A DNA stretch of 64,000 nt from an uncultured Clostridium sp. (GCA_947427095.1 CANEGO010000001.1:131428-195427), one strand, 5' to 3'. Numbered from the stretch's first letter, positions 42,710 through 57,387 are shown. Numbers and translations are program-made. Notes: generated by a model from the letters alone, not told the origin.

Positions 42710-43675
42710 TTATTTTTTTAATGTTAAACATGGATTTTTTAATGGTTTTTTTTGAAAATCCAAAACAAATTCTGACTCGTAATTTAACTGATTATCTTCA
42801 CCATCTAAAAAGTTTTTATAATCTTTACTAGAATACTTTGTTTCAAAAGAAAAATCATTAGTTTGTTCATAATACAGTCCGTTTCTATATGATAATGCAA
42901 AACCATCCATATAATCTTTTAACGTGACATCATCTAATTTTATCCATCCGTCTTTTAAAAGCTTTTGTGCAACTTTTATTCGTGAATCATTCATTATCAT
43001 AAATGCGCCGGATAAACACCCACTTAATTTTGGGATACCTATTCTTTGTAAAATACATCTATTTAACTGAAAAAACTGCGCATAAGTACAATCTATTAAA
43101 TACTCTTTCCCGTCTATTTGGACAATAACAGCATAATGTTGCTTAATACCATTGCACAAAATGGGCTTTGTTGTAAAACCTGGAAACAAAGCTATTTTTT
43201 TACAATTTATCCCTATTTCCCTACACAGACTTTCTATATAATTGCTAACTGGCAAACATTGCCCTACCATGTTAAATTTATCTAAAGATAAATTTAATTG
43301 ATGATTAGCTTTAGAGCATATAAAATTCCTTGCATTATTAGTAATATAGCTTAAAATATCTTCAGGATTTTTTCCACAAACAAATAAATTATCATCTGGA
43401 TTATAATTTGCTTTAATATCTATAACATATTCATTTGATAATAATCTTTCACACTTAAGAACTAAGCTTGTTATGGCAAAATAATTTTTCCCAAAGTTTT
43501 CATCTTTACTATATAACTCAAACGATATATCTTTTACATATTGATATAATTGTTCAATGCTCTTTATCTTAGAATCAGTATTGCTAAGGTTTAACATATA
43601 AGTATAATATTTTTTTATTTCTTGACAATATTCACCATAATAATCATTTGCTTTTTTTGCTTGTTCTAACGTCAT
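42710..43675 (-). CDS. Hypothetical protein (possible Cys-His-Asp papain/transglutaminase-like fold)
   Basis: 321 aa. Candidate catalytic triad in GQCLPVSNY ... HYAVIVQIDGKEYLIDCT. Confidence 0.3.
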   Translation of the reverse strand: MTLEQAKKANDYYGEYCQEIKKYYTYMLNLSNTDSKIKSIEQLYQYVKDISFELYSKDENFGKNYFAITSLVLKCERLLSNEYVIDIKANYNPDDNLFVCGKNPEDILSYITNNARNFICSKANHQLNLSLDKFNMVGQCLPVSNYIESLCREIGINCKKIALFPGFTTKPILCNGIKQHYAVIVQIDGKEYLIDCTYAQFFQLNRCILQRIGIPKLSGCLSGAFMIMNDSRIKVAQKLLKDGWIKLDDVTLKDYMDGFALSYRNGLYYEQTNDFSFETKYSSKDYKNFLDGEDNQLNYESEFVLDFQKKPLKNPCLTLKK

Positions 43676-43947
43676 AAAACCCCTCTTTTAATGACAAATA
43701 CTATATATTATTAAGATAAAAAAGTCAATATTTGAAGAATTTTCTTAAATATGTTTTAGTCTCAAAGTAATTATCATCACCAGATAAAGAAAAATTCATA
43801 TTATTTATTTCTAAATATGTTTAAAACTCTTTATAAGAAAATTTAATTGTAATCCTTTTATTATTTTAAAACAATAAAGAACTTGTCGTACTGCTGCTTC
43901 TTTAAATTAGTTAATAATTTTATCTTCTTTCTAAATTTAAATAACAA

Positions 43948-43980
43948 AAACACTAATCCAAATTTGGATTAGTGTTTTAT
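43948..43980. terminator. Orphan hairpin terminator in a divergent intergenic region
   Basis: aacactaatcca-aat-ttggattagtgtt hairpin (12-bp stem) with a T run. Confidence 0.4.
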
Positions 43981-44212
43981 TCTTAACTCGAAGAGTTCGA
44001 GCAAATTTCACTATGGAGCCTTAACGATACACGTATGCGAAAAATTATACTCCCAAGATTGATTAAATCAACTGATAATTAAATTATAGCAGATATTCCA
44101 ATTATTTCAAGTGGGAGTATGGAAAAAAATGCCTAAATATGTTATTATTATAGTAGATTTGTATCATTAAAATTATGATACTTTTTATTTTAGAAAAATT
44201 AAGGAGGATGTT

Positions 44213-45025
44213 ATGGAAACAGTAAATGGATATTTAACTTCAATACAATCAGATTTATATGTAAATGGTACAGAAAAAGATAGTATTAAGACATCTATAG
44301 ATGCAATATGTACTAGACTAGGTTATTACTTTGGAAATTCAGAACATAATATTCATAAAATTATTAAGAAAGATATCTTTGGTTCTTATAGTAGAGACAC
44401 TATGCTTTCAAGAAAGTACGATGAAGATTCGGATATTGACTTAATGATTATTTTTGAAGATGCTAATGAATATACACCGCAAACTTGCTTAAATTGGCTA
44501 AAAGAATTTGCTGATTATTGGTATCCAAATTCATTAGTAAAACAATCTTTACCAACAATAGTTATTGAATTACAAAATATAAAATTTGAATTAGTACCAG
44601 CATATAAAAATGATTATAACAATTTATATATAGCAAAAGACAGTTCAAATTGGCAATATACTAATCCTAAAGATTTAAACGATAGGATGGTTAAATTAAA
44701 TTCAAATACTAATTTTGAATTTAAAAGAATGATAAGAACAATCAAATATTGGAATGTTAAAAAGAATTATAGAAGATATAAATCATATTTTTTAGAAAAA
44801 TATTTAACAGAAAAGTTTGAAACTTCTTATATACATTGTAAAAATCAATTTGATTATTTAGATTGGGCTTTCTATCATTTAGGACATTATGATGCCAATG
44901 ATGACTATATAAGTAGTAGAATAAAATCTGCTCAGTCAAATATTACGGATGCTCAAAATTATGAAAAAAATTGCGACTATGATTCTGCAGTGAAATGTAT
45001 AAAAAAAATAATTCCAGAGACATAA
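44213..45025 (+). CDS. Pol-beta-superfamily nucleotidyltransferase, SMODS-like (candidate second-messenger synthase)
   Basis: 270 aa. Strong AAGGAGG RBS. Active-site pattern GSYSRDT...DEDSDIDL (GS-x10-DxD) plus a downstream acidic residue. Confidence 0.45.
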   Translation: METVNGYLTSIQSDLYVNGTEKDSIKTSIDAICTRLGYYFGNSEHNIHKIIKKDIFGSYSRDTMLSRKYDEDSDIDLMIIFEDANEYTPQTCLNWLKEFADYWYPNSLVKQSLPTIVIELQNIKFELVPAYKNDYNNLYIAKDSSNWQYTNPKDLNDRMVKLNSNTNFEFKRMIRTIKYWNVKKNYRRYKSYFLEKYLTEKFETSYIHCKNQFDYLDWAFYHLGHYDANDDYISSRIKSAQSNITDAQNYEKNCDYDSAVKCIKKIIPET

Positions 45026-45035
45026 GAGGTATTGT

Positions 45036-45812
45036 ATGGAAAATGAAAGAAAAGATGAAGTTCAAGAACTTTACGATAGATGCAATAGAATTTCAAAGTA
45101 TGCAGATTGGTTGTTTTTAATTAATATAGTGATTTCATTTATATTAATATTTGATTTTAAATATAGAGATATACTTATTATTATAAGTTTAATATTAACT
45201 ATTATATATGTTGTATTAGTAAATATAAATGAAATCTATTTTAATAATCTAGCAGAAAATGAAAGAAGGAAATCCCTTTTAAAAGAGTCTTTTGATGTTA
45301 ATACTACTTTAAGAGAAACAAATAAGTATTACAATAATGAAGCTGAACCATCTATTAAAAAACTTGGTCTAAATTGTTATGAAAGTGCTTTTTTTACAAA
45401 AAGAGTAGTAGATAAAATGCTTCCCAGAAATATTATTAAAATTGTTATATTTACTATAATATATATTGTTTTAATGATGAAATTAGAAAATATGGATTTA
45501 TTATTAGTAATTACACAAACATTATTTTCGGCTGAAATTATATTTTCATTTATAAAATTATGTTATTATAAATTCCAATTAGATAAAGTTTGTAACGAAT
45601 TTCAAAATATATTTCTTATAATAGGCTTAAAAAATAAGGATGTGAATGTTTTAATTTTAGATGCTACTATGGATTATGAATGCTTAAAAAACTACTGCAA
45701 GATTTCAACGTCAAGTAAAATATTTTTTGACAATAACAAGAAATGGTCAAAAGATTGGCAAAAATTGTTAAGTAAAATTAGGAAAAAATCGGAGAGGGAT
45801 AATAATGAATAA
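45036..45812 (+). CDS. Four-TM membrane protein (S-4TM-like candidate effector)
   Basis: 258 aa. Four predicted TM helices (WLFLINIVISFILIF, ILIIISLILTIIYVVLV, IIKIVIFTIIYIVLMM, LLLVITQTLFSAEIIFSFI). It lies 10 nt downstream of the NTase. Confidence 0.45.
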   Translation: MENERKDEVQELYDRCNRISKYADWLFLINIVISFILIFDFKYRDILIIISLILTIIYVVLVNINEIYFNNLAENERRKSLLKESFDVNTTLRETNKYYNNEAEPSIKKLGLNCYESAFFTKRVVDKMLPRNIIKIVIFTIIYIVLMMKLENMDLLLVITQTLFSAEIIFSFIKLCYYKFQLDKVCNEFQNIFLIIGLKNKDVNVLILDATMDYECLKNYCKISTSSKIFFDNNKKWSKDWQKLLSKIRKKSERDNNE

Positions 45813-46434
45813 AAAAATTGAAAATGCTATAAAATACTATAAGTTATGTACTAAACTAAAAGATACAATTAGGACAGGTCCTATTGTTTGGAATGCCAAA
45901 AGAGAAAGAATCGAAAGTGTTGCAGAACACATATATGGAGTTCAAATGTTAGCATTAGCTATTTATTATCAATTTGGATACAAATTAGATATTATGAAAG
46001 TTATTTATATGTTAGCAATCCATGAACTAGAAGAAATAGAAATTGGTGATTTAGCATTTTTTGAAACTACAAGAGAAGAAAAACTCGTTAAAGGCAAGGA
46101 AGCAACAGATTATATACTAAAAGATTTTCTTGGAAAAGATGAAATATCGGCATTATTAGATGAGTATAATGAAAGAACTACAGAAGAATCTAAATTTGCT
46201 TATAATTGTGATAAATTAGAATGTGATATTCAAATGAAACTGTATGATCAAGAAGGATGTTTTGATTTAAATAATCAGCCTAATAACCCAATCCTCAATA
46301 ATCCTAGTGTTAAAAAAGTATTGGATAGTGAAAAAAGCATATCTAATGCCTGGATTGAATTTGATAGAAGCAAGTATGAAGATGATAAAAACTTTATTGA
46401 AATTGTTGACTATTTAAAAGAAAAAGAAATATAA
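45805..46434 (+). CDS. HD-domain phosphohydrolase (YfbR-like 5'-deoxynucleotidase family)
   Basis: 209 aa. HD motif ESVAEHIYGVQMLALAI...AIHELEEIEIGD. Overlaps the upstream gene by 8 nt. Confidence 0.55.
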   Translation: MNKKIENAIKYYKLCTKLKDTIRTGPIVWNAKRERIESVAEHIYGVQMLALAIYYQFGYKLDIMKVIYMLAIHELEEIEIGDLAFFETTREEKLVKGKEATDYILKDFLGKDEISALLDEYNERTTEESKFAYNCDKLECDIQMKLYDQEGCFDLNNQPNNPILNNPSVKKVLDSEKSISNAWIEFDRSKYEDDKNFIEIVDYLKEKEI

Positions 46435-46451
46435 ATTAGGAGGCTAAAATT

Positions 46452-47258
46452 ATGCAAAAATTAATTATGTTAGGAACAGGACACGGCTTTGTCTATAATT
46501 GTTATAATACCTGCTTTCTGTTGCAAAATGATAATGAATACTTTTTAGTTGATACTGGAGGCAGTGCTCATATAGTACAGAATCTTGAAAAATTAAATAT
46601 AAGTTTAAATAAAATACATAACATTTTTATTTCCCATAGCCATACAGATCATATTTTAGGATTATTTTGGCTATTAAAACGAATAACTGGAATGGTTCGT
46701 TCTAAGAAGTATGATGGAAATTTAAATGTTTATTGTAATGATGAAGTAGCAAATGCTATTAAAAATATTTATCCTTATTTATTTCCAGATGTTTATGGTG
46801 AAGTGATAGATAAATATTTAAATATAGTAGTTTTAAATAATAATGAAACAAGGAAAATTACTAATAGAGAATATACTTTTTTTGATGTAATGGCAAGTAA
46901 AAATAAATTATATGGATTTGAAACAATTCTTGATAATAATAAAAAATTAGTATTTCTTGGTGATGAAACTTGTAATCCGTTGTTGTATGATAGAATCAAA
47001 AATAGTGATTATGTAATGCATGAGGCGTTTTGCTTGGATAGTGAGCAAGATATATTTAAACCTTACGAAAAAAAGCATTCAACTGTGAAATCAGTATGTG
47101 AGAATTTTACAAACTTAAATATTAGAAATTTAATTTTATATCATACAGAAGATACACATTTAGAAAACAGAAAAGGATTATATATAAAAGAGGCTCAAGA
47201 ATATTTTAATGGTAATGTTATAGTACCAAATGATTTAGAAATAATCGACTTAGATTAA
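46452..47258 (+). CDS. MBL-fold metallo-hydrolase
   Basis: 268 aa. HSHTDH (HxHxDH) motif and an MLGTGHG N-terminus. Confidence 0.7.
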   Translation: MQKLIMLGTGHGFVYNCYNTCFLLQNDNEYFLVDTGGSAHIVQNLEKLNISLNKIHNIFISHSHTDHILGLFWLLKRITGMVRSKKYDGNLNVYCNDEVANAIKNIYPYLFPDVYGEVIDKYLNIVVLNNNETRKITNREYTFFDVMASKNKLYGFETILDNNKKLVFLGDETCNPLLYDRIKNSDYVMHEAFCLDSEQDIFKPYEKKHSTVKSVCENFTNLNIRNLILYHTEDTHLENRKGLYIKEAQEYFNGNVIVPNDLEIIDLD

Positions 47259-47273
47259 GGAGATGTTTAAAAT

Positions 47274-48035
47274 ATGGATTCAAACAATAAAGTTAATAAT
47301 TATGATAAGTTTGCTGAAAAAAGACATTATGAGGTTAAAAATGGAATGAAAAAGTCATTAAGATTTGTAGAAAAACCTATGATGACATCAATGCTACCAA
47401 ATTTAGAAGGCAAAAGAATTCTTATGTTAGGATGTGGCACTGCCGAAGAAAGTGAGTTATTAAGTAGATATAATCCTAAAAAGATAACTGGAATTGATAT
47501 ATCAGAAAAATCTATTCAAGTTGCTAAAGAAAGTTATCCAAATTGTGATTTTTATGTTGGTGATATGTTAAGCCTTCCATTTAAAGATAATGAATTTGAC
47601 TTTATTTTTAGTAGTTTAGCAATTAGTCATGTTGAAGATAAAAACAAAGTCTTTAAAGAATTATATAGAGTTTTGGATAATGAAGGACAATTATTATTTT
47701 CAGTTGGTCATCCAATGAGATTTGCTACTGAAAAAATTGATTATAATGATACTTCATATCATGTTATTGGATTTGAGGCTGGTAATGATGGTAATCATAT
47801 ATTAGGAAATTATATGTCTCATACAAAGCAGGTAAATTATTTTAAAGATAATGAAGTATTAGAAGAATTCATTGCTCCACCATCATATTTTTTTGAGGCA
47901 CTTATGAAAAATAATTTTGTAGTTGAGAACTTTAAAGAATCTAGATGTATTGATGAATGTAAAGAAGTAGATGAAGCCTATTACAATAGATTTCACGAAC
48001 TACCACAATTTATGGCATTTTTGGCAAAAAAATAA
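47274..48035 (+). CDS. Class I SAM-dependent methyltransferase (type 11)
   Basis: 253 aa. SAM-binding motif I ILMLGCGTAEES and motif post-I GIDISE. Confidence 0.7.
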   Translation: MDSNNKVNNYDKFAEKRHYEVKNGMKKSLRFVEKPMMTSMLPNLEGKRILMLGCGTAEESELLSRYNPKKITGIDISEKSIQVAKESYPNCDFYVGDMLSLPFKDNEFDFIFSSLAISHVEDKNKVFKELYRVLDNEGQLLFSVGHPMRFATEKIDYNDTSYHVIGFEAGNDGNHILGNYMSHTKQVNYFKDNEVLEEFIAPPSYFFEALMKNNFVVENFKESRCIDECKEVDEAYYNRFHELPQFMAFLAKK

Positions 48036-48050
48036 AAGACAATGGCTAGG

Positions 48051-49355
48051 TTACCAATTCCTAGAATTGTCTTTTTCTTTTTGCATATCCTTATCAAAAT
48101 TATTAAGATTATTTTGTATAGATTCAGATTGTTTTCTAATTTCTTTACAGTAATTATCTAATTTGCGAAGTTCTTTGATTTTGGGTTGAATAGAATTTAT
48201 TTCAGCAAGTATATCTGATTTTTTATCTTCAGTTTTTACTCTGTGATATCGTTTCCAAAGATTTTCTCTTTTACCCATAAGGTTTTGATATTCTTCATAA
48301 TTATTTTTAGCAAATGCCTCCAAATCCTCTTTAGTTTCAATTTTATTGGCTACCATAAATCTTGTTTGTTCTGAAAATGAATCTAACTTTTTTATTTCTT
48401 TTCTTATAGAATAGGATAGATATTGTTTTGGGTATTTTTTTGGAAAGACTCCTAGAAGATAGCAATAGTATAAATATAAGCCATAGATACCTTTGTAATG
48501 ATTATTAGTCTTTGATAAATATTCTTGAAAAATAGACTTTTGAGATATAGATTTAAAAATAATTTGTTTTGAATAATATAATCGTTCATTAATTCTATTT
48601 TTTGAATAATCACTACCAAATACTTTTTCAATTCTAACTTTATCATAACCATCTCTATAAATAGTTATTATGCCATTACGAGAATAACATTTATAACCTA
48701 TCTGTTTCATTCTATCCATAACTTGTGTTAGTGTAACAGAATAATTAATAATGCTATCTAAATCATCTTTTAGGACTTTGTAATAATCGTTATCAATCAC
48801 TTTATGATTATAAGTGTTTTTATAACCAACATCCTCATTTAAAACAGAGAGTCCATATTCAGCACATAGTGAATCAGAAATGTGTCTTAGCTTGGCTAAG
48901 TTAGTTCTATTGTTATTATACTTTTTGCCAGTCTTGAATGAAACAGAGTTGACTATGAAATGATTGTGAATATGATTTGTATTCTGATGAGTAGCAACAA
49001 CCACTTCATAATCTTTAAACATTTCTTCTACAAACTTAACTCCAATTTCGTGAGCAACATCAGCTGTAACTTCTCCTTCCTTAAAAGATTGGTATCCATG
49101 ATATGCTAGAACCCCATCATTCTTACGATAATAATCTTTTGTATCTTTCATATCATCATAGGGATTATCATCATTACAATTTAAACAACTTACGTAACAG
49201 ATTTTTTCTTTTTTAAAATCATAATCTTTTTTACCTTCTAAAAAATCGTAATCAACTTTACCATAATCTTTATTGGTAGTCTTTTCTGGATTGATGATAT
49301 AATTTATAGATTGTTTTAAATTATTTTTAATACTCCATATAGATGTTGTCGCCAT
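48051..49355 (-). CDS. Mobilization relaxase (MobA/VirD2-type relaxase domain)
   Basis: 434 aa. Histidine triad motif HQNTNHIHNHFIVN and a C-terminal coiled-coil-like region. Confidence 0.6.
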   Translation of the reverse strand: MATTSIWSIKNNLKQSINYIINPEKTTNKDYGKVDYDFLEGKKDYDFKKEKICYVSCLNCNDDNPYDDMKDTKDYYRKNDGVLAYHGYQSFKEGEVTADVAHEIGVKFVEEMFKDYEVVVATHQNTNHIHNHFIVNSVSFKTGKKYNNNRTNLAKLRHISDSLCAEYGLSVLNEDVGYKNTYNHKVIDNDYYKVLKDDLDSIINYSVTLTQVMDRMKQIGYKCYSRNGIITIYRDGYDKVRIEKVFGSDYSKNRINERLYYSKQIIFKSISQKSIFQEYLSKTNNHYKGIYGLYLYYCYLLGVFPKKYPKQYLSYSIRKEIKKLDSFSEQTRFMVANKIETKEDLEAFAKNNYEEYQNLMGKRENLWKRYHRVKTEDKKSDILAEINSIQPKIKELRKLDNYCKEIRKQSESIQNNLNNFDKDMQKEKDNSRNW

Positions 49356-49421
49356 AATTAAGGTTTAGCCTTTCTTTTTTAGTGGTGGGAGTACCAGCAC
49401 GTTGCTCGCTTATAGACAACA

Positions 49422-49775
49422 TCATACATATACCAACTCTTTTAAGATAATTTCTTCTGCACAGTCTTTATAATTATTCATCAATTCCACCCATTCAATT
49501 TGATTATTTGCTTTACTTTTTTCAGTTAGTTTTTCATCATTTTTAATATAATTATCCATTAAAATTTTAAGTCTATCTTCACATTCATTACTGACTGAAA
49601 CAAGATGATTTGTTAATTCATCTTGCATAAGAAGGGTCGTATATAGACCTTTATTATGCTCTTTTAGATAATTTAATCTCAAATATCCATACTTGTTAAT
49701 TCTTTCATAATTTTGATTTTTTATAGTTAGATTTGGTAATAAATAATCTCCAACTTTTGTATAATTTAATTTCAT
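49422..49775 (-). CDS. TnpV-like small protein
   Basis: 117 aa. Its size and its position next to the large serine recombinase match TnpV of Tn4451/Tn4453-type elements. This is recalled from family knowledge and has not been searched. Confidence 0.4.
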   Translation of the reverse strand: MKLNYTKVGDYLLPNLTIKNQNYERINKYGYLRLNYLKEHNKGLYTTLLMQDELTNHLVSVSNECEDRLKILMDNYIKNDEKLTEKSKANNQIEWVELMNNYKDCAEEIILKELVYV

Positions 49776-49778
49776 TTT

Positions 49779-51924
<2,146 letters not shown>

Positions 51925-52005
51925 TCACATAACAAGGACACCTAGAATATATTGATTTTTACACGACAAAATAAATCAATATAGTGGGAGTATGTAACTC
52001 ACCAA

Positions 52006-52278
52006 TTAATGCCTTGCTATGTACTCTGATAATTCAGACAATGGGATTTTCTTTTTTAGATTCCCTATGTAAAAATGTTTCTGCTCATTGAAGAATAAGT
52101 ATAACTTATTATCAATAATCACTTTGTGTGGTTCCACATATGCGATATTCGTGTGTTCCACAATTCGTAAATAACCCTCTATGATTTTATAGGAGAGGTT
52201 ATTAAATTTGCAAGACCAATTAATTTTGTCTTTGAGTTCATCGCTCATATTGATTTTCTTTTTTACAATTTTAATCAT
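52006..52278 (-). CDS. Hypothetical protein
   Basis: 90-aa ORF lying between the Tn-like element and the partial tRNA-Gly copy. Confidence 0.35.
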   Translation of the reverse strand: MIKIVKKKINMSDELKDKINWSCKFNNLSYKIIEGYLRIVEHTNIAYVEPHKVIIDNKLYLFFNEQKHFYIGNLKKKIPLSELSEYIARH

Positions 52279-52385
52279 ACCACATCACACCTTTCTTGAC
52301 TAGACCTTTTTAGTCGACAAAAAAATCAATCATATTTCAGATTGATTTAATCATTAACGTCACTTGGTGCGACGATTTTACCTTT

Positions 52386-52429
52386 TGGAGCAAGTGATGG
52401 GAATCGAACCCACGTCTCAGCCTTGGCAA
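52386..52429 (-). repeat. 44-bp direct repeat identical to the 3' end of tRNA-Gly (island att repeat, partial tRNA)
   Basis: Positions 52386-52429 are identical to 56208-56251 (tggagcaagtgatgggaatcgaacccacgtctcagccttggcaa). Confidence 0.75.
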
Positions 52430-52558
52430 TTTAAAAAAATATGCATTAGAAACAGCGCTTTTTTGCTGATATTTTAATGAAGTTTAACTAATTTTAATCG
52501 TTTTAAAAAGGGCTTAAATTTAAAGAAAATTCAGAAAAATTAAAATAAATTTAACAAT

Positions 52559-52582
52559 TTGGCACGATTTTGGCACGATTTT
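52559..52582 (+). repeat. Tandem TTGGCACGATTTT-GGCACGATTTT repeat (left end of the island)
   Basis: Directly visible. A degenerate third copy TTGGTGCGACGATTTT lies at 52365-52380. Confidence 0.6.
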
Positions 52583-52748
52583 AATTTTAGGGTGAATTTA
52601 CCATGTGTAACAATTAAGTTACAGCTTACAAACTTTGTTTTCTTTTTAAAAACATTATATATGAATTATTGTTAAATTTTCATGGGAGTATATAAATAAT
52701 TTGAAAATTATTATATAATTTAATTAGTTTGTTTGTCGGAGGTGCTGT

Positions 52749-54440
52749 ATGAATATCATAGATAAACTTGAACAAGAAAAAATACATGTTGGTATAAGAT
52801 ACTATGGATTAGAAGACTTATCTACAGGAATAATAGTTAAAAGTTTATTAGATGGTAAAAATACTATATTAGATAACTATAAAACTAATAGTATCACAAC
52901 AATTGAAGATTATATTGATTATATTTTTCTAGATTTTATTATGAAATTTGAAGAAGTTATTCCATATGTTAAAGAGGAAAAGAGAGATGAATTCGGAGAA
53001 TTTATAGCAAACTGCAAAGTTATTTATAAAGAATATTCAATTGGTAATGTAGTTAAATACATTCAAAAAGATTATAAAAACATTTATCAATATACTGATA
53101 AAAATGAAAGTACTTATATAGCATTTGATTTAAAGAATTATACTTCTGAATTTGTTGCTGATCATTTTAATTGTTTTAATGATGATATTATGAATTATAT
53201 AATAAATGAGGAAACATATGATGTTATTGATTGTTTTAGAAAATGGCAGAAATATTTTATAAGAAAACCTGAGCAATTAATTGAGCTATTGAATGAAAAA
53301 AATATTAATAAAGTATTTTTCATGAGAGTTCAAGAAATTATTGATATAATTGATTCTTTAAAAAATAATAATAAATTTGATAAAATAGTATCAGATGCTG
53401 TAGAAATTATTTATAAAATATTAGAAACGCAGTATTTTAATCCAAACGGAGATCAGAAAATATGGCAGAGTTTCTATATGTTAAATGATTGTCTACCATT
53501 ATTTAAAAAAATGAAATCAACTTATGCCTATAGCTTAGAACAAGAATTAGAAAAACAAGAAAACTTATTTAATGAGAATTTAGTGAAAAATGGCCATAAA
53601 CAAACTATAAAGTTTGATTTAAAACCTTTTAAAGATTTCTTTGAAGATAACACAAAACCTTGGGAAGTTAGAATAGTATTTTTAACACATTCAAAGGATG
53701 AGGACGGAAAAATTGTTAGTTTTCTTGAACAAGGTGTAAAATGTGATACAAAAGCACTAACAGATGAATTGGTCAGAAAAAATCCTGGCACAGATGATTA
53801 TTTTACAAGTTGGAGATTAAGAAACTTAAGTTATTATTCATTTGAAATCAAATCAAGATTTATGACTTTAATGAATTCTAGTAATAATATTAGTGAATAT
53901 CTATCTGACATTTATGGTGAATTAAAATATATCTGCGATAATCTTAATACAAGTATGGAGATTGAATCATTAGATGAAAATATGGAGATGTTATCTCAGT
54001 TTTTAACTGATTTGTTTATAAATTATTCTAAAGATTCAGACAAATATAAAATTTCTATAAAAAACTTAATTTATGGGTGTTCTATGTTTTTATGTGGCTT
54101 TATTGAAAAAATATTAAGAATTATTTATAAAAACAGTATGAAGGATATATCTTATATTCCTGATTCAAGTATAACGTTGGGTAACTTGTTAGTTGAAAAT
54201 GATAATAATACTGAGATTTTAATTAATATATTGGGAATAGAACAAATAAAATGTCTTAGGTATTACTTGCATAAAATAGATTATTATAATGTTGTTGGGC
54301 AAAATATTAGAAATAATCTTGCACATATAAATGGTAAAACAATGAAAAACTTAAATTATGATTTGATATTAGAATTACTTTCCTATTTTACGTCTATTCT
54401 TAATAGTTGTGTTTTATACTATCAAGGGAAAAACAAATAA
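52749..54440 (+). CDS. Hypothetical 563-aa protein with a C-terminal HEPN-like Rx4H motif (Abi-like?)
   Basis: A GGAGGTG RBS is present. The C-terminus carries NIRNNLAHINGK (R-x4-H), as seen in Abi_2/HEPN families. The rest is unrecognised. Confidence 0.35.
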   Translation: MNIIDKLEQEKIHVGIRYYGLEDLSTGIIVKSLLDGKNTILDNYKTNSITTIEDYIDYIFLDFIMKFEEVIPYVKEEKRDEFGEFIANCKVIYKEYSIGNVVKYIQKDYKNIYQYTDKNESTYIAFDLKNYTSEFVADHFNCFNDDIMNYIINEETYDVIDCFRKWQKYFIRKPEQLIELLNEKNINKVFFMRVQEIIDIIDSLKNNNKFDKIVSDAVEIIYKILETQYFNPNGDQKIWQSFYMLNDCLPLFKKMKSTYAYSLEQELEKQENLFNENLVKNGHKQTIKFDLKPFKDFFEDNTKPWEVRIVFLTHSKDEDGKIVSFLEQGVKCDTKALTDELVRKNPGTDDYFTSWRLRNLSYYSFEIKSRFMTLMNSSNNISEYLSDIYGELKYICDNLNTSMEIESLDENMEMLSQFLTDLFINYSKDSDKYKISIKNLIYGCSMFLCGFIEKILRIIYKNSMKDISYIPDSSITLGNLLVENDNNTEILINILGIEQIKCLRYYLHKIDYYNVVGQNIRNNLAHINGKTMKNLNYDLILELLSYFTSILNSCVLYYQGKNK

Positions 54441-54522
54441 CTTTATTAATTATATTAAGTTTTTAATTAATTTTTATGTATAATTATTATTAAAATAATT
54501 TATTGGTAAAAGGAGTATAAGA

Positions 54523-55572
54523 ATGAATGAGATTAATATGGTTTGGTTAACTCTTAATAGAAATTGTAATTTAAGGTGTAAATGGTGTTATGCAAAAGGA
54601 GAAAAGTTTGATTTTAATCTTAAAATGGATTTTGGTTTAGCTCAAGAGCTTATTGATTTTATTAATGATTTAGGAGTTAAAGAGGTTGCTCTAATCGGTG
54701 GAGAACCAACTTGTTATAGTGAACTTAAGAAGTTAATTTCTTATATAAAATCAAAAGATATAAAAGTTTGTTTAATAACAAATGGTCTTATTTTTAGCGA
54801 TAAATCTTATTTACAAGAATTAGAAAATTTAGGTGTTGATAGTGTCAACTTTTCTATGAAGGGTTGGTCAAAAGAAAGTTACATCGTTAATACTGGTGTA
54901 GATGCTTTTGATAAAACATTAGAAGCATTAAAAAATATATCTAATTCAAATATCAATAGCATGGTTTCTTTTGTAATCAGTTATGAAAATATTGATTATC
55001 TTTTAAAAGTTGTTGAAATTACTTCAGAATGTGGAATAAAAAACTTTTACTTCTCATTTGAAAACGACTTTTCTGTGCTTGACGGTGAAATAAAAAAATA
55101 TGATGTGAATGAAATTTCTAAAATTGTTAAAGTTTTTTCTGAAAATTATGAAGAGTTAAATAGATTAACAAGGGAAAATTTTACATTACACCAATCACTT
55201 CCTCTTTGTGTTTGGAATAAGGATATAATAGAGAAAATGAGAAATAAAACCCAAATTCAAACATCTTGTATATTACTACAAAGGAGTGGACTAGTTTTTG
55301 ATACAAATGGATTTTTAATACCGTGTAATTCTATACACCAAGTCAAACTTGGTAAGTTTAAAAAAGATTTTAAAGATAAAAAAACATTTTACTCATTCTG
55401 GAATTCAAATCAGATGAATAAAATATATAATAAGTTTTGTTCTTTACCAAGTAAAACATGTAATAAGTGCAAAGATGAGTCTGTTTGTGGAGGAGGATGT
55501 CTTTCGAATTGGTATAATTATGAATTTAATGATTTATTAAATGAAAATATAATAAAAAATAATGTAAATTAA
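54523..55572 (+). CDS. Radical SAM/SPASM-domain peptide maturase
   Basis: 349 aa. CxxxCxxC cluster CNLRCKWC at the N-terminus and a C-terminal Cys-rich SPASM region (CNKCKDESVCGGGC). Confidence 0.8.
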   Translation: MNEINMVWLTLNRNCNLRCKWCYAKGEKFDFNLKMDFGLAQELIDFINDLGVKEVALIGGEPTCYSELKKLISYIKSKDIKVCLITNGLIFSDKSYLQELENLGVDSVNFSMKGWSKESYIVNTGVDAFDKTLEALKNISNSNINSMVSFVISYENIDYLLKVVEITSECGIKNFYFSFENDFSVLDGEIKKYDVNEISKIVKVFSENYEELNRLTRENFTLHQSLPLCVWNKDIIEKMRNKTQIQTSCILLQRSGLVFDTNGFLIPCNSIHQVKLGKFKKDFKDKKTFYSFWNSNQMNKIYNKFCSLPSKTCNKCKDESVCGGGCLSNWYNYEFNDLLNENIIKNNVN

Positions 55573-55641
55573 TTTTTAAGTTGTAAATTGACAGGTTAAA
55601 AAAATTAATATATTATAGTTAAAAGAAGAGGTGAATATCTT

Positions 55642-55881
55642 ATGGAAATTAATGGTGCATTACAAAAATTAAAAAAGAACGGAAGCTTACCTAAGAAGCC
55701 TTTTAGAAGTATTGGAAGTCATATCAAACTGGCTACTATAGGACCGTGTTCGGCATGTGGTGCTTGTTTCCGTGATAATGATGATGTGATTAAAAAAAGT
55801 ATAAATGACAGTTCATTTCAAAAAAGTAATAAGTTTAAACGTTGCGTTTCTGGTCCATGCTCAGCATGTGGTGCTTGCTAA
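55642..55881 (+). CDS. Cys-rich precursor peptide with a duplicated GPCSACGAC core (candidate RiPP precursor)
   Basis: 79 aa with an AGAGGTG RBS. It contains ...ATIGPCSACGACFRDNDD... and a C-terminal ...VSGPCSACGAC. It sits immediately downstream of the rSAM/SPASM gene. Confidence 0.6.
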   Translation: MEINGALQKLKKNGSLPKKPFRSIGSHIKLATIGPCSACGACFRDNDDVIKKSINDSSFQKSNKFKRCVSGPCSACGAC

Positions 55882-56093
55882 TTTAATAATAAATATTTTT
55901 AGAAAAAATATAATTTTGTAAAAAAGATAATTAAAAATTGTAAAATTTGTTTAATTATCTTTTTTAATTTGTTTAAAGCTCTAACCCTGGTTTCAGCCAT
56001 AAAATTTTAATTATATTTATATTAATTTCAACGAGTTTTAAACAAAAGTATAATAGATTATGATTAAAAAATATTAATCTATAGTTTATTATT

Positions 56094-56118
56094 TTGGCAC
56101 GATTTTTGGCACGATTTT
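56094..56118 (+). repeat. Tandem TTGGCACGATTTTT-GGCACGATTTT repeat (right end of the island)
   Basis: Directly visible. Same unit and orientation as 52559-52582. Confidence 0.6.
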
Positions 56119-56173
56119 CATTTTTGAGTAAAAAAAGGCTATTTTTTGATATTTTTGAACTTTTTAAAATATG

Positions 56174-56200
56174 AAAAAACCCTTATTTTATAAGGGTTTA
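56174..56200 (-). terminator. Terminator downstream of the tRNA-Cys/tRNA-Gly pair
   Basis: aaaccctta-tttta-taagggttt hairpin plus a U run on the minus strand, immediately 3' of tRNA-Gly. Confidence 0.5.
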
Positions 56201-56207
56201 TTTGCTA

Positions 56208-56282
56208 TGGAGCAAGTGATGGGAATCGAACCCACGTCTCAGCCTTGGCAAGGCCGCGTACTAGCCGTTGTACTACACCTGC
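56208..56282 (-). tRNA. tRNA-Gly (anticodon GCC)
   Basis: The reverse complement GCAGGTGTAGTACAACGGCTAGTACGCGGCCTTGCCAAGGCTGAGACGTGGGTTCGATTCCCATCACTTGCTCCA folds as a cloverleaf with anticodon loop UUGCCAA and an encoded CCA. Confidence 0.85.
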
Positions 56283-56286
56283 AAAA

Positions 56287-56361
56287 TGGAGGGGCCAGCC
56301 GGACTTGAACCGGCGATCGTGGAGTTGCAGTCCAATGCCTTACCAACTTGGCTATAGCCCC
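56287..56361 (-). tRNA. tRNA-Cys (anticodon GCA)
   Basis: The reverse complement GGGGCTATAGCCAAGTTGGTAAGGCATTGGACTGCAACTCCA...GGTTCAAGTCCGGCTGGCCCCTCCA folds as a cloverleaf with anticodon loop CUGCAAC. Confidence 0.85.
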
Positions 56362-56442
56362 GTGTAAAGAAATTATAACATAACTGATAAATAAATATCA
56401 AGTGTTATTCCCTATATTTTATGCAAATAAAATTCTAATTAT

Positions 56443-56877
56443 TTATTTTATTCCATATTTATCTACTATAGCCTTAAGAAGCTTTCTAATTAAATAATAA
56501 GTTATTAACAAAAATACAATAAGAACTAATAGTGGCAAGAAAAAATCAATTAAAGTAAACACAAATAATAAACTAAAAATAATTATTAAAACAATTATTC
56601 CCACAGTAATATAACTACTTGTTTCCCACCCTTTATGTTCTTTTGCTTCAGGTTCATCTGAAATATTTAGTATAACTAATAAACATAATAATATTATTAT
56701 CGCAATACTATATATAATTATGGTTTTAGATTCTCTTAAATCAAATAATAAAGAATAAAAACCACCATTTATTAAATATGTTATGGTAAGTAAGGTGCCA
56801 ACAATAATACAGAAAATCTTTAGCATTTTATTGCTTTTATTTAAGAATTCTTGTTCTTTATCTCTTCTTTTCTTCAT
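56443..56877 (-). CDS. Hypothetical polytopic membrane protein
   Basis: 144 aa with four hydrophobic helices. Confidence 0.4.
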   Translation of the reverse strand: MKKRRDKEQEFLNKSNKMLKIFCIIVGTLLTITYLINGGFYSLLFDLRESKTIIIYSIAIIILLCLLVILNISDEPEAKEHKGWETSSYITVGIIVLIIIFSLLFVFTLIDFFLPLLVLIVFLLITYYLIRKLLKAIVDKYGIK

Positions 56878-56937
56878 TGGAATCCACCTCGCAAAACAAT
56901 TATATAATGAAACTTATTTTTTGTAAATAAAAGAGTT

Positions 56938-57387
56938 CTATTTAGAACCCTTACTATTTTTCAAATATTTTAATTTTTCATCCACTAAATATTTAGATAA
57001 CGCATCTTCTATTTTAGAAAGAGACCGTTTATCTAAACAACCAATAGTAAAATGTTCTTTTACGGTATCTATTTCTACTACACCAAATAAAATGTTTGTT
57101 CTAATTTCAAAATCATTTAACATATCTGGCGTAATAGAGGTATAAAAATACCTTCCAAAACTTCTTTTTCTACCTAGTAACATTCTTTTGTTAGTAAAAA
57201 CAATGATAGTGGTATAAAAAGGCATGGTCCAGTTGGTATCCTTTTGACCCGCAAATGTAAATAACACAACCTCATCATCATTTATATGTTGATCAACGAC
57301 CTTAGCGTGTCTTTTCACGTTCCAAGCGATTGTTTTAGGATACTTTCTCAAAAAATCTTTACAACTGTTATATACTTTATTAACCAT
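56938..57387 (-). CDS. Bacterial PH-domain-containing protein (YokE/GRAM-like)
   Basis: 149 aa. Pattern VVLFTFAGQ...IVFTNKRMLL is typical of the bacterial PH (bPH) fold. Confidence 0.4.
   Translation of the reverse strand: MVNKVYNSCKDFLRKYPKTIAWNVKRHAKVVDQHINDDEVVLFTFAGQKDTNWTMPFYTTIIVFTNKRMLLGRKRSFGRYFYTSITPDMLNDFEIRTNILFGVVEIDTVKEHFTIGCLDKRSLSKIEDALSKYLVDEKLKYLKNSKGSK

Follow-up and report, generated by a model that had tools for sequence, protein, structure and literature searches.

A 64-kb stretch of an uncultured Clostridium sp. genome, referred to here as the window, carries at 52386-56251 a segment of 3.8 kb that ends at a tRNA-Gly(GCC) gene and is bounded by a 44-bp direct repeat. 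Between the repeats lie genes for a 563-aa all-helical protein, a radical SAM (rSAM)/SPASM enzyme and a small Cys-rich peptide, and the segment, called the island below, is adjoined on its other side by a larger element encoding a serine recombinase. We read the island as a non-autonomous integrative element resembling the cis-mobilisable elements (CIMEs), and give this reading a probability of roughly 0.6. The structure of the island, its polymorphism between strains and the relatedness of both of its ends to integrase-bearing tRNA-Gly elements are established by the comparisons described below. Elements of this kind are already known, and the island is a clean and well-bounded example of them.

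The repeat-bounded segment at tRNA-Gly(GCC)

The window has two copies of the 44-mer TGGAGCAAGTGATGGGAATCGAACCCACGTCTCAGCCTTGGCAA (Table 1), which are 100% identical, on the same strand and 3,822 bp apart. A search that allowed three mismatches revealed no further copy, and none of 100 shuffled sequences gave a match. The repeat corresponds to tRNA positions 32-75, opening with the first base of the anticodon loop and closing with the encoded CCA, with the anticodon at position 34, and the locus has both the tRNA and the cognate fragment by which Islander recognises a tRNA island. Attachment sites (attP) centred on the anticodon are the commonest class among the tRNA islands catalogued by Islander (PMC4383910). 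A scan of 43500-57000 with Rfam returned two tRNAs and no other RNA. The displaced copy is adjoined at lower coordinates by the serine-recombinase element. The initial annotation had described this copy as exact and as the signature of site-specific integration into the 3' part of the tRNA; its exactness is confirmed by ARAGORN, Rfam and the repeat search, and integration is supported by the limits of the repeat, at the anticodon loop and the CCA, and by strains whose flanks are 99% identical but which lack the island exactly at the repeat.

Table 1. Positions of the features of the island and its surroundings, numbered from the first letter of the window.
Feature	Position	Strand	Basis or remark
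GCTCCA (44014-44019) and native tRNA-Gly downstream sequence, including native terminator hairpin	43949-44019	-	empty-site strains
8.4-kb Tn4451-like mobilisable element, separate from the island	44020-52385	-	Pfam, junction comparison
Large serine recombinase, 623 aa	50008-51879		Resolvase + Recombinase + Zn_ribbon_recom 2.1e-35
90-aa ORF, tRNA-proximal end of the serine-recombinase element	52006-52278	-	
Direct repeat copy 2, displaced tRNA-Gly 3' fragment at the far end of the island	52386-52429	-	exact repeat
Distal arm: small hairpin (52453-52468) and tandem motif	52430-52613	.	~70% similar to L026 distal arm
Tandem GGCACGATTTTGGCACGATTTT, putative arm-type sites, oriented like the tRNA-proximal pair	52561-52582	+	distal arm
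Conserved leader of the 563-aa gene, module start	52614-52748	+	~77% similar upstream of L001 and L002 homologues
563-aa all-helical protein gene, HEPN/DUF4209-like	52749-54440	+	family alignment, AlphaFold2 (AF2)
Radical SAM/SPASM enzyme, 349 aa	54523-55572	+	Pfam Radical_SAM 6.9e-24, Fer4_12
Promoter-like site, 11/12 matches	55588-55616	+	ahead of the peptide gene
79-aa precursor-like Cys-rich peptide	55642-55881	+	two GPCSACGAC motifs, the second C-terminal
tRNA-proximal arm: terminator and tandem motif	56091-56207	.	alignment to L017, terminator scan
Tandem GGCACGATTTT-T-GGCACGATTTT, putative integrase arm-type sites	56096-56118	+	tRNA-proximal arm
Element-borne terminator hairpin for the tRNA	56177-56199		between right-hand motif pair and tRNA; terminator scan
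Direct repeat copy 1, tRNA-proximal, junction with the regenerated tRNA	56208-56251	-	exact repeat
tRNA-Gly(GCC), intact, integration target	56208-56282	-	ARAGORN; Rfam tRNA 63.7 bits
tRNA-Cys(GCA), directly upstream of tRNA-Gly, marker of the same locus in other strains and L017	56287-56361	-	ARAGORN, Rfam

Each end of the island has an arm carrying two tandem copies of the 11-mer GGCACGATTTT, the pairs lying 131 bp (distal) and 88 bp (tRNA-proximal) inside their respective repeats. The 11-mer has four copies in the 64 kb, all of them in these two pairs, a number reached by none of 100 shuffled sequences, and the likeness between the two arms spans about 29-40 bp. The pairs are probably arm sites for an integrase. 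The hairpin in the tRNA-proximal arm would terminate the regenerated tRNA. In an excised form the attP junction would read AAGGGTTTATTTGCTA, the 44-mer and then TTTAAAAAAATATGCATTAG, and the repaired chromosomal junction would read intact tRNA-Gly followed by AAAGGTAAAATCGTCGC.

The locus was traced in other strains through a 149-aa core gene (56938-57387), whose protein is identical on 21 metagenome contigs; the 563-aa and rSAM proteins themselves matched no contig when looked up exactly. Ten of the 21 contigs were fetched, nine of which reach the tRNA-Cys/tRNA-Gly pair, and eight of these extend past the tRNA informatively. The sequence 3' of the tRNA-Gly CCA end varies between them. Loci L005, L008 and L009 are fully empty sites, where TAGTGAAATTTGCTCGAAC and a terminator hairpin come after the tRNA; 71 nt of this sequence, including the tRNA-terminal GCTCCA and contiguous with the tRNA end, are 100% identical to window 44019-43949. 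At L006 and L010 the tRNA end runs straight into AAAGGTAAAATCGTCGCACC, which in the window comes after the partial tRNA copy (52386) and which leads on to the 90-aa ORF and the serine recombinase, the island being absent exactly at the repeat. When 52430-56251 is removed in silico, L010 aligns with the window as a single block of 5,999 columns across the junction (99.2% identity in the core flank, 92.3% on the serine-recombinase side), and colinearity with L006 is restored too, giving the presence/absence polymorphism characteristic of tRNA islands. In a second sample, contig L032 matches 54912-56234 with 100% identity, its end falling within the repeat.

At least three states of the locus are seen in this way, namely empty, with the serine-recombinase element alone, and with the island plus the serine-recombinase element. 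The island is accordingly polymorphic in the empty-site comparison that the initial annotation had proposed, being absent from L006 and L010, and together with its neighbour from L005, L008 and L009. The description of the site as a composite hotspot also holds, with the serine-recombinase element at the CCA end of the same tRNA and at least six different sequences after this tRNA in other strains.

Three more sequences, mutually different, follow the same tRNA-Gly at L004 (11181-11706), L011 (4921-4938) and L013 (3672-3695), so the site hosts at least four kinds of insert besides the empty state.

Missing recombination genes and a candidate integrase family

Searches of all three open reading frames (ORFs) against Pfam, NCBIfam and PADLOC found no integrase or excisionase domain in the island, and there are no relaxase or type IV secretion system (T4SS) genes between the repeats. 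When three Int, three Xis and three 131-135-aa proteins from the elements described below were used as tblastn queries, nothing in the island matched even at E ≤ 10, and no homologue or remnant of the cognate Int, Xis or 135-aa protein was found in the rest of the window. The domain and tblastn searches thus uphold the view that the island has neither integrase nor excisionase. It had been supposed that the island either depends on a recombinase encoded elsewhere or is a decayed remnant, and this pair of options stands, with no int gene in the window and a candidate family of suppliers found at tRNA-Gly(GCC).

This family was reached through locus L017 (CAYOWI010000052.1), which was picked up when species-representative genomes were scanned for exact matches to the tandem motif. 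The contig is 4.1 kb long and has 26% GC, with tRNA-Cys and tRNA-Gly(GCC) in the same arrangement as in the window. Over 117 bp it is ~95% identical to window 56207-56091, including the terminator and an identical tandem motif, and the likeness ends right after the motif. Its genes encode a 510-aa Phage_integrase protein facing the tRNA, a Xis-like protein with an HTH_17 domain and two small ORFs. The contig is filed in a Muribaculaceae metagenome-assembled genome despite its 26% GC and its Firmicutes-type tRNA-Cys/tRNA-Gly, and is probably mis-binned.

The other end of the island is matched by L026, a near-complete element of 7.6 kb whose integrase is 66% identical to that of L017. It begins inside the repeat with the same boundary as in the window, which falls between ...CCTTGGCAA and TTT, and its distal arm is ~70% similar to window 52430-52600. 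Where the window has its motif, L026 has TTCTGCACACGATTTGCACATG, and its opposite end carries TTCTGCACACGATTCTGCACACGG and, after that, the same AAAAACCCTTATTTTATAA terminator. The motif variant TGCACACGATT is present in both arms of L026 at the homologous place; the variant therefore co-varies between the arms of one element, as expected for sites of that element's own integrase.

L017, L026 and L031 share a conserved module of three genes, which encode the integrase, the HTH_17 Xis-like protein and a protein of 131-135 aa. The protein database contains 39 members of the integrase family, with lengths of 428-537 aa among the full-length matches and of 474-510 aa in the relatives examined. Its gene lies beside tRNA-Gly(GCC) in all five loci that reach the tRNA (L017, L031, L060, L061 and L062), and at L031 and L060-L062 it is convergent with the tRNA; the far repeat of L060 was not found within 10 kb. 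As L031 also encodes a T4SS coupling protein and ArdC, at least some relatives are conjugative or mobilisable, and the cognate elements look like conjugative or mobilisable elements and not like phages. The island has the full site architecture of the family, with the core repeat, two arms with tandem sites and the terminator, and none of its recombination genes.

Tandem copies of the motif are also found far outside this family. The 22-base pattern occurs on 10 genome contigs from several phyla and on one viral contig, where chance would be expected to produce it well under once in the 596-Gb collection (as estimated from 4^-22). The loci with tandem arrays (L015-L025, L041, L042, L044, L047, L050, L051 and L057) belong to very different phyla and to phage contigs, and the arrays consist of 2-6 units at 11-12 bp when degenerate units are counted. 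Arrays beside tyrosine integrase genes and tRNA 3' ends are seen in Bacteroidales, Acidobacteria, Clostridia, Synergistales and phage contigs. The motif lies 50-90 bp past the 3' end of a tRNA at L017, L018, L021 and L023, and at L017, L019, L021, L042 and L050 a tyrosine integrase gene has its 3' end within ~220 bp of the motif. The integrases at these last five loci differ in their N-terminal domains, and L019, L021, L042 and L050 are unrelated loci. A metagenome scan for the motif together with its 3' extension found nothing. Judged from these sequences, the association of the motif with integrase genes and tRNA 3' ends is real but unexplained.

Cargo modules and the neighbouring element

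The three ORFs between the arms are all on the plus strand at the places given in the initial annotation (Table 1), and its statement that the island encodes just three genes holds to that extent; they make up two independent modules, however, and not an operon with a single function. The 563-aa protein belongs to a family of ~35 metagenomic proteins, and about 120 bp upstream are conserved together with the gene, which is thus a self-contained module. The AF2 model of the protein is of high confidence (pLDDT 89.8) and all-helical. Residues N519, R521, N522, A525 and H526 in the helical C-terminal region are invariant in 31 sequences (NxRNxLAH), giving the spacing R-x4-H within the R-x4-6-H pattern of HEPN domains, and DUF4209 is matched weakly by 6 of the 31 relatives. 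Searches with PADLOC, Pfam and NCBIfam returned nothing for the protein itself, and its model found no fold match in the PDB. The label HEPN-like, as first applied, is supported by the invariant R-x4-H and the weak DUF4209 matches but not by any fold match, and is plausible but unproven.

The contexts of the homologues of this gene at L001-L003 hold no tRNA and no tandem motif, and are uninformative on the mobility of the island. The genes that follow the homologues differ between the three loci (Orn/Arg-decarboxylase-like and YbaK; AP_endonuc_2, inositol phosphatase and YbaK; DUF4238), and in the window the gene is followed by the rSAM enzyme and peptide. At L001 and L003 the homologue lies inside or beside mobile elements, with conjugation genes and a serine recombinase, respectively. 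This pattern resembles that of variable cargo or defence hotspots within mobile elements.

The 349-aa enzyme has both the rSAM motif CX3CX2C (CNLRCKWC) and the SPASM motifs CX13GX4C and CX2CX5CX3C (CNKCKDESVCGGGC). The Pfam SPASM model does not match it, and its full-length matches to the SPASM maturases of NCBIfam are all far below the cut-offs; membership of the ACGX-repeat family (TIGR04340) was rejected at 51 bits against a cut-off of 400. The 79-aa peptide matches no model in PADLOC, Pfam or NCBIfam. Downstream of enzymes that are 68% and 62% identical there are peptides of 76 aa and 72 aa, respectively, which share its leader and the terminal C(S/A)ACGAC. The adjacent Cys-rich peptide is thus conserved with the enzyme, and the two genes are predicted to be an independent enzyme-plus-peptide cassette. 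These relatives at 62-68% identity stand in chromosomal contexts, after the spoVA operon or the suf operon. Close homologues of the enzyme and peptide follow directly after the sporulation genes sigF-spoVA at L033-L036 (L033, 8001-9329), which hints that the modified peptide may have a spore-related role; a further close homologue is at L037 (8001-9322).

The large serine recombinase that the initial annotation had placed immediately beside the island is confirmed. In addition to this gene and the 90-aa ORF, the element has an 80-aa ORF, TnpV (3.5e-34) and a MobA/VirD2 relaxase (1.1e-36), and its cargo on the plus strand comprises the cyclase and four-transmembrane (4TM) effector of a cyclic oligonucleotide-based antiphage signalling system (CBASS), HD and MBL-fold proteins and a methyltransferase. 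The large serine recombinase, TnpV, Mob relaxase and short shared junction mark it as Tn4451-like. It sits exactly at the CCA end of tRNA-Gly, and its junctions share GCTCCA alone; such junctions fit a serine recombinase, by which the 44-bp repeat is not explained. The element was also considered as a second member of the 44-bp repeat series, and this was rejected since there is no fragment of the 44-mer at its far end.

The 90-aa ORF has a homologue (33% identity, E 2e-17) at the same position in a different element (L004, 11278-11553), and could encode an accessory factor, for example one controlling directionality, that is conserved near the element's end. In L010 (3681-5993, against window 52385-50073) the element is 92% identical to that of the window and the core flanks are 99.2% identical, and this difference suggests independent acquisition or exchange instead of vertical descent.

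Interpretation and comparison with known systems

As a CIME-like element, the island would have been inserted through strand exchange by a tyrosine recombinase in the region of the anticodon loop, with the core inverted repeat supplied by the anticodon stem. It would have brought with it the segment from the loop to the CCA that rebuilds the tRNA, together with a terminator of its own, and the tandem GGCACGATTTT pairs would be arm-type sites bound by the integrase. Excision and re-integration would then take place only when an integrase (and Xis) with the specificity of L017 was supplied, either in trans by a co-resident element or by a related element that integrates in tandem, both excising together. 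Between the arms the element would have only cargo, made up of the HEPN/DUF4209-like gene with its leader and the rSAM/SPASM and peptide cassette with its promoter. With its repeats and sites perfect and no gene debris left, the island looks somewhat more like a recombination substrate that could still be used. A bolder version, which we consider unlikely, is that the island is an actively moving, integrase-less hitchhiker on the Int and Xis of integrative and mobilisable elements (IMEs) or integrative and conjugative elements (ICEs) at tRNA-Gly, with the tandem GGCACGATTTT array serving as a widely shared arm-site signal. If this were true, such a signal could let many unrelated integrases mobilise small cassettes of cargo only, and its sharing across phyla would bear on the range over which non-autonomous islands can spread.

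Several observations weigh against a CIME-like, still usable element. The comparison loci are metagenome contigs, many of which end at the repeat, and the presence/absence alleles could also be explained by one ancestral insertion or by RecA-dependent deletion between the 44-bp repeats. The fetched contigs showed neither an excised circle nor an attP junction, and no second site of insertion. The integrase search covered 64 kb of the source genome. At L060-L062, where the integrases are 51-62% identical, there is no tandem motif between int and the tRNA, and the proposed binding of the motif by the integrase is drawn from position, copy pattern and co-variation. Lastly, the link from the left arm through the repeat to the serine-recombinase element comes from the source assembly, with no independent contig spanning it.

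The island could instead be inert, having derived from an integrase-bearing tRNA-Gly element, or having once been mobilised by one, and being immobile now, with the alleles reflecting an old vertical insertion or loss by homologous recombination. There is no recombinase in the island or the window, no contig has a circular or attP junction, deletion across the 44-bp repeat would yield exactly the allele of L006 and L010, and decayed elements beside functional ones are the usual state of tandem arrays (PMC5704250). Slow decay should, however, degrade the sites, and the 44-bp repeats are identical, the four 11-mer sites are perfect and the tRNA-proximal arm has kept ~95% identity to its counterpart in an integrase-bearing element. 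The int/xis pseudogene debris to be expected of slow decay is also absent, although activity is not thereby proven. An inert fossil is therefore regarded as possible but doubtful. In a further alternative the duplication of the 44 bp is an assembly artefact. Short-read contigs of the locus nearly all break at or just past the tRNA, L032 ending inside the repeat, and contigs of two strains might have been joined at the tRNA 3' end with the island and the serine-recombinase element on separate molecules; the window, on the other hand, is drawn from a contig of 206,880 bp, and we hold such a join to be highly improbable. Even if the contig were chimeric, the island would be integrase-less with a repeat at each end, as the right junction is confirmed by L032 and a left junction of the same type is present in L026, so a chimeric join would alter only the order within the composite.

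Two other accounts concern the function of particular parts. The neighbouring serine recombinase could be what moves the 3.8-kb segment, whether together with its own element or as an additional substrate, given that its gene is 107 bp from the left repeat and its element also targets the end of tRNA-Gly. Against this, that element has junctions of its own (44014-44019 and 52386-52391) with GCTCCA alone in common, it is present without the island at L006 and L010, both are missing at L005, L008 and L009, and a 44-bp block beginning in the anticodon loop and flanked by arm repeats is the layout of tyrosine-integrase elements; the elements matching the island's arms encode a tyrosine integrase. 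A serine-recombinase origin was rejected on junction structure, and is considered very improbable. The GGCACGATTTT pairs, for their part, might be sigma-54 promoters (TGGCACG-N4-TTGCW-like) that drive the cargo and not recombination sites: TGGCACGATTTTGGCA at 52560 has the GG-N10-GC spacing and is upstream of the 563-aa gene, and the 11-mer appears in published lists of sigma-54 promoters. The second pair, however, points outward toward the tRNA, its 12-bp spacing puts the GC one base off, both arms of L026 carry TGCACACGATT without the essential GG, and at other loci 2-6 units of the motif are arrayed at 11-12 bp just beyond integrase genes or the 3' ends of tRNAs. On the L026 variants and the array pattern this reading was judged unlikely, and we leave it a very small chance.

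The CIME-like reading has some wider implications. Island finders that require an integrase, such as Islander, overlook elements of this type. With this island, a candidate gene of defence type and a cassette for peptide modification have come to a tRNA hotspot where a transposon with a CBASS is also present. The parts needed for testing how elements with only cargo make use of another's integrase are found here too, in the form of empty, single-occupancy and double-occupancy alleles, a candidate integrase family and candidate arm sites that co-vary between the two arms of an element.

Compared with known systems, the neighbour of the island is similar to Tn4451/Tn4453 in its large serine recombinase, TnpV, MobA/VirD2-type relaxase and very short junction core (PMC3158075), but in place of catP it carries the CBASS cyclase and 4TM effector along with genes for HD, MBL and methyltransferase proteins, and its insertion site is the CCA end of tRNA-Gly. 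Its TnpV is assigned through the Pfam threshold. The rSAM enzyme and peptide are like the rSAM/SPASM maturase cassettes (TIGR04340 ACGX, ranthipeptide PapB, sactipeptide) in that an enzyme with SPASM motifs is followed by a Cys-rich peptide with CxACGAC cores, although the enzyme falls far below the NCBIfam cut-offs and the peptide matches no model.

The island itself shares with those catalogued by Islander the intact tRNA with a 3' fragment in the same orientation, a repeat starting from the anticodon loop and the restored tRNA (PMC4383910), but would be filtered out by Islander, which requires an integrase inside the interval (PMC4383910). With the IMEs and ICEs that carry the L017/L026/L031 module it has in common the target tRNA, the repeat boundary, the GCAC-type arm repeats and the terminator, and it differs in encoding none of their Int, Xis-like or 131-135-aa proteins. 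It was not accepted as an IME, having no recombinase of its own in 52430-56207 and no mobilisation function such as a relaxase or oriT, nor as a phage satellite of the phage-inducible chromosomal island (PICI) or P4 type, as its three ORFs have no domains for integrase, replication or primase, or for capsid redirection or packaging.

CIMEs are defined by the retention of attL and attR with the loss of integration and transfer genes (PMC5704250). Among the closest known systems are the CIMEs of the ICESt1/ICESt3 family in Streptococcus thermophilus and comparable decayed elements at the 3' ends of streptococcal tRNAs or genes. The island differs from these in that it targets tRNA-Gly(GCC) and its host is a low-GC spore-former, in that its cognate integrase family is identified by sequence, and in that the tandem neighbour is an unrelated serine-recombinase element and not a relative capable of co-excision. 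The island is nevertheless like these CIMEs in being flanked by attL and attR without integration or transfer genes, in having att sites and arms related to those of integrase-bearing elements with the same target, here L017 and L026, and in standing in tandem with a mobile element at a hotspot.

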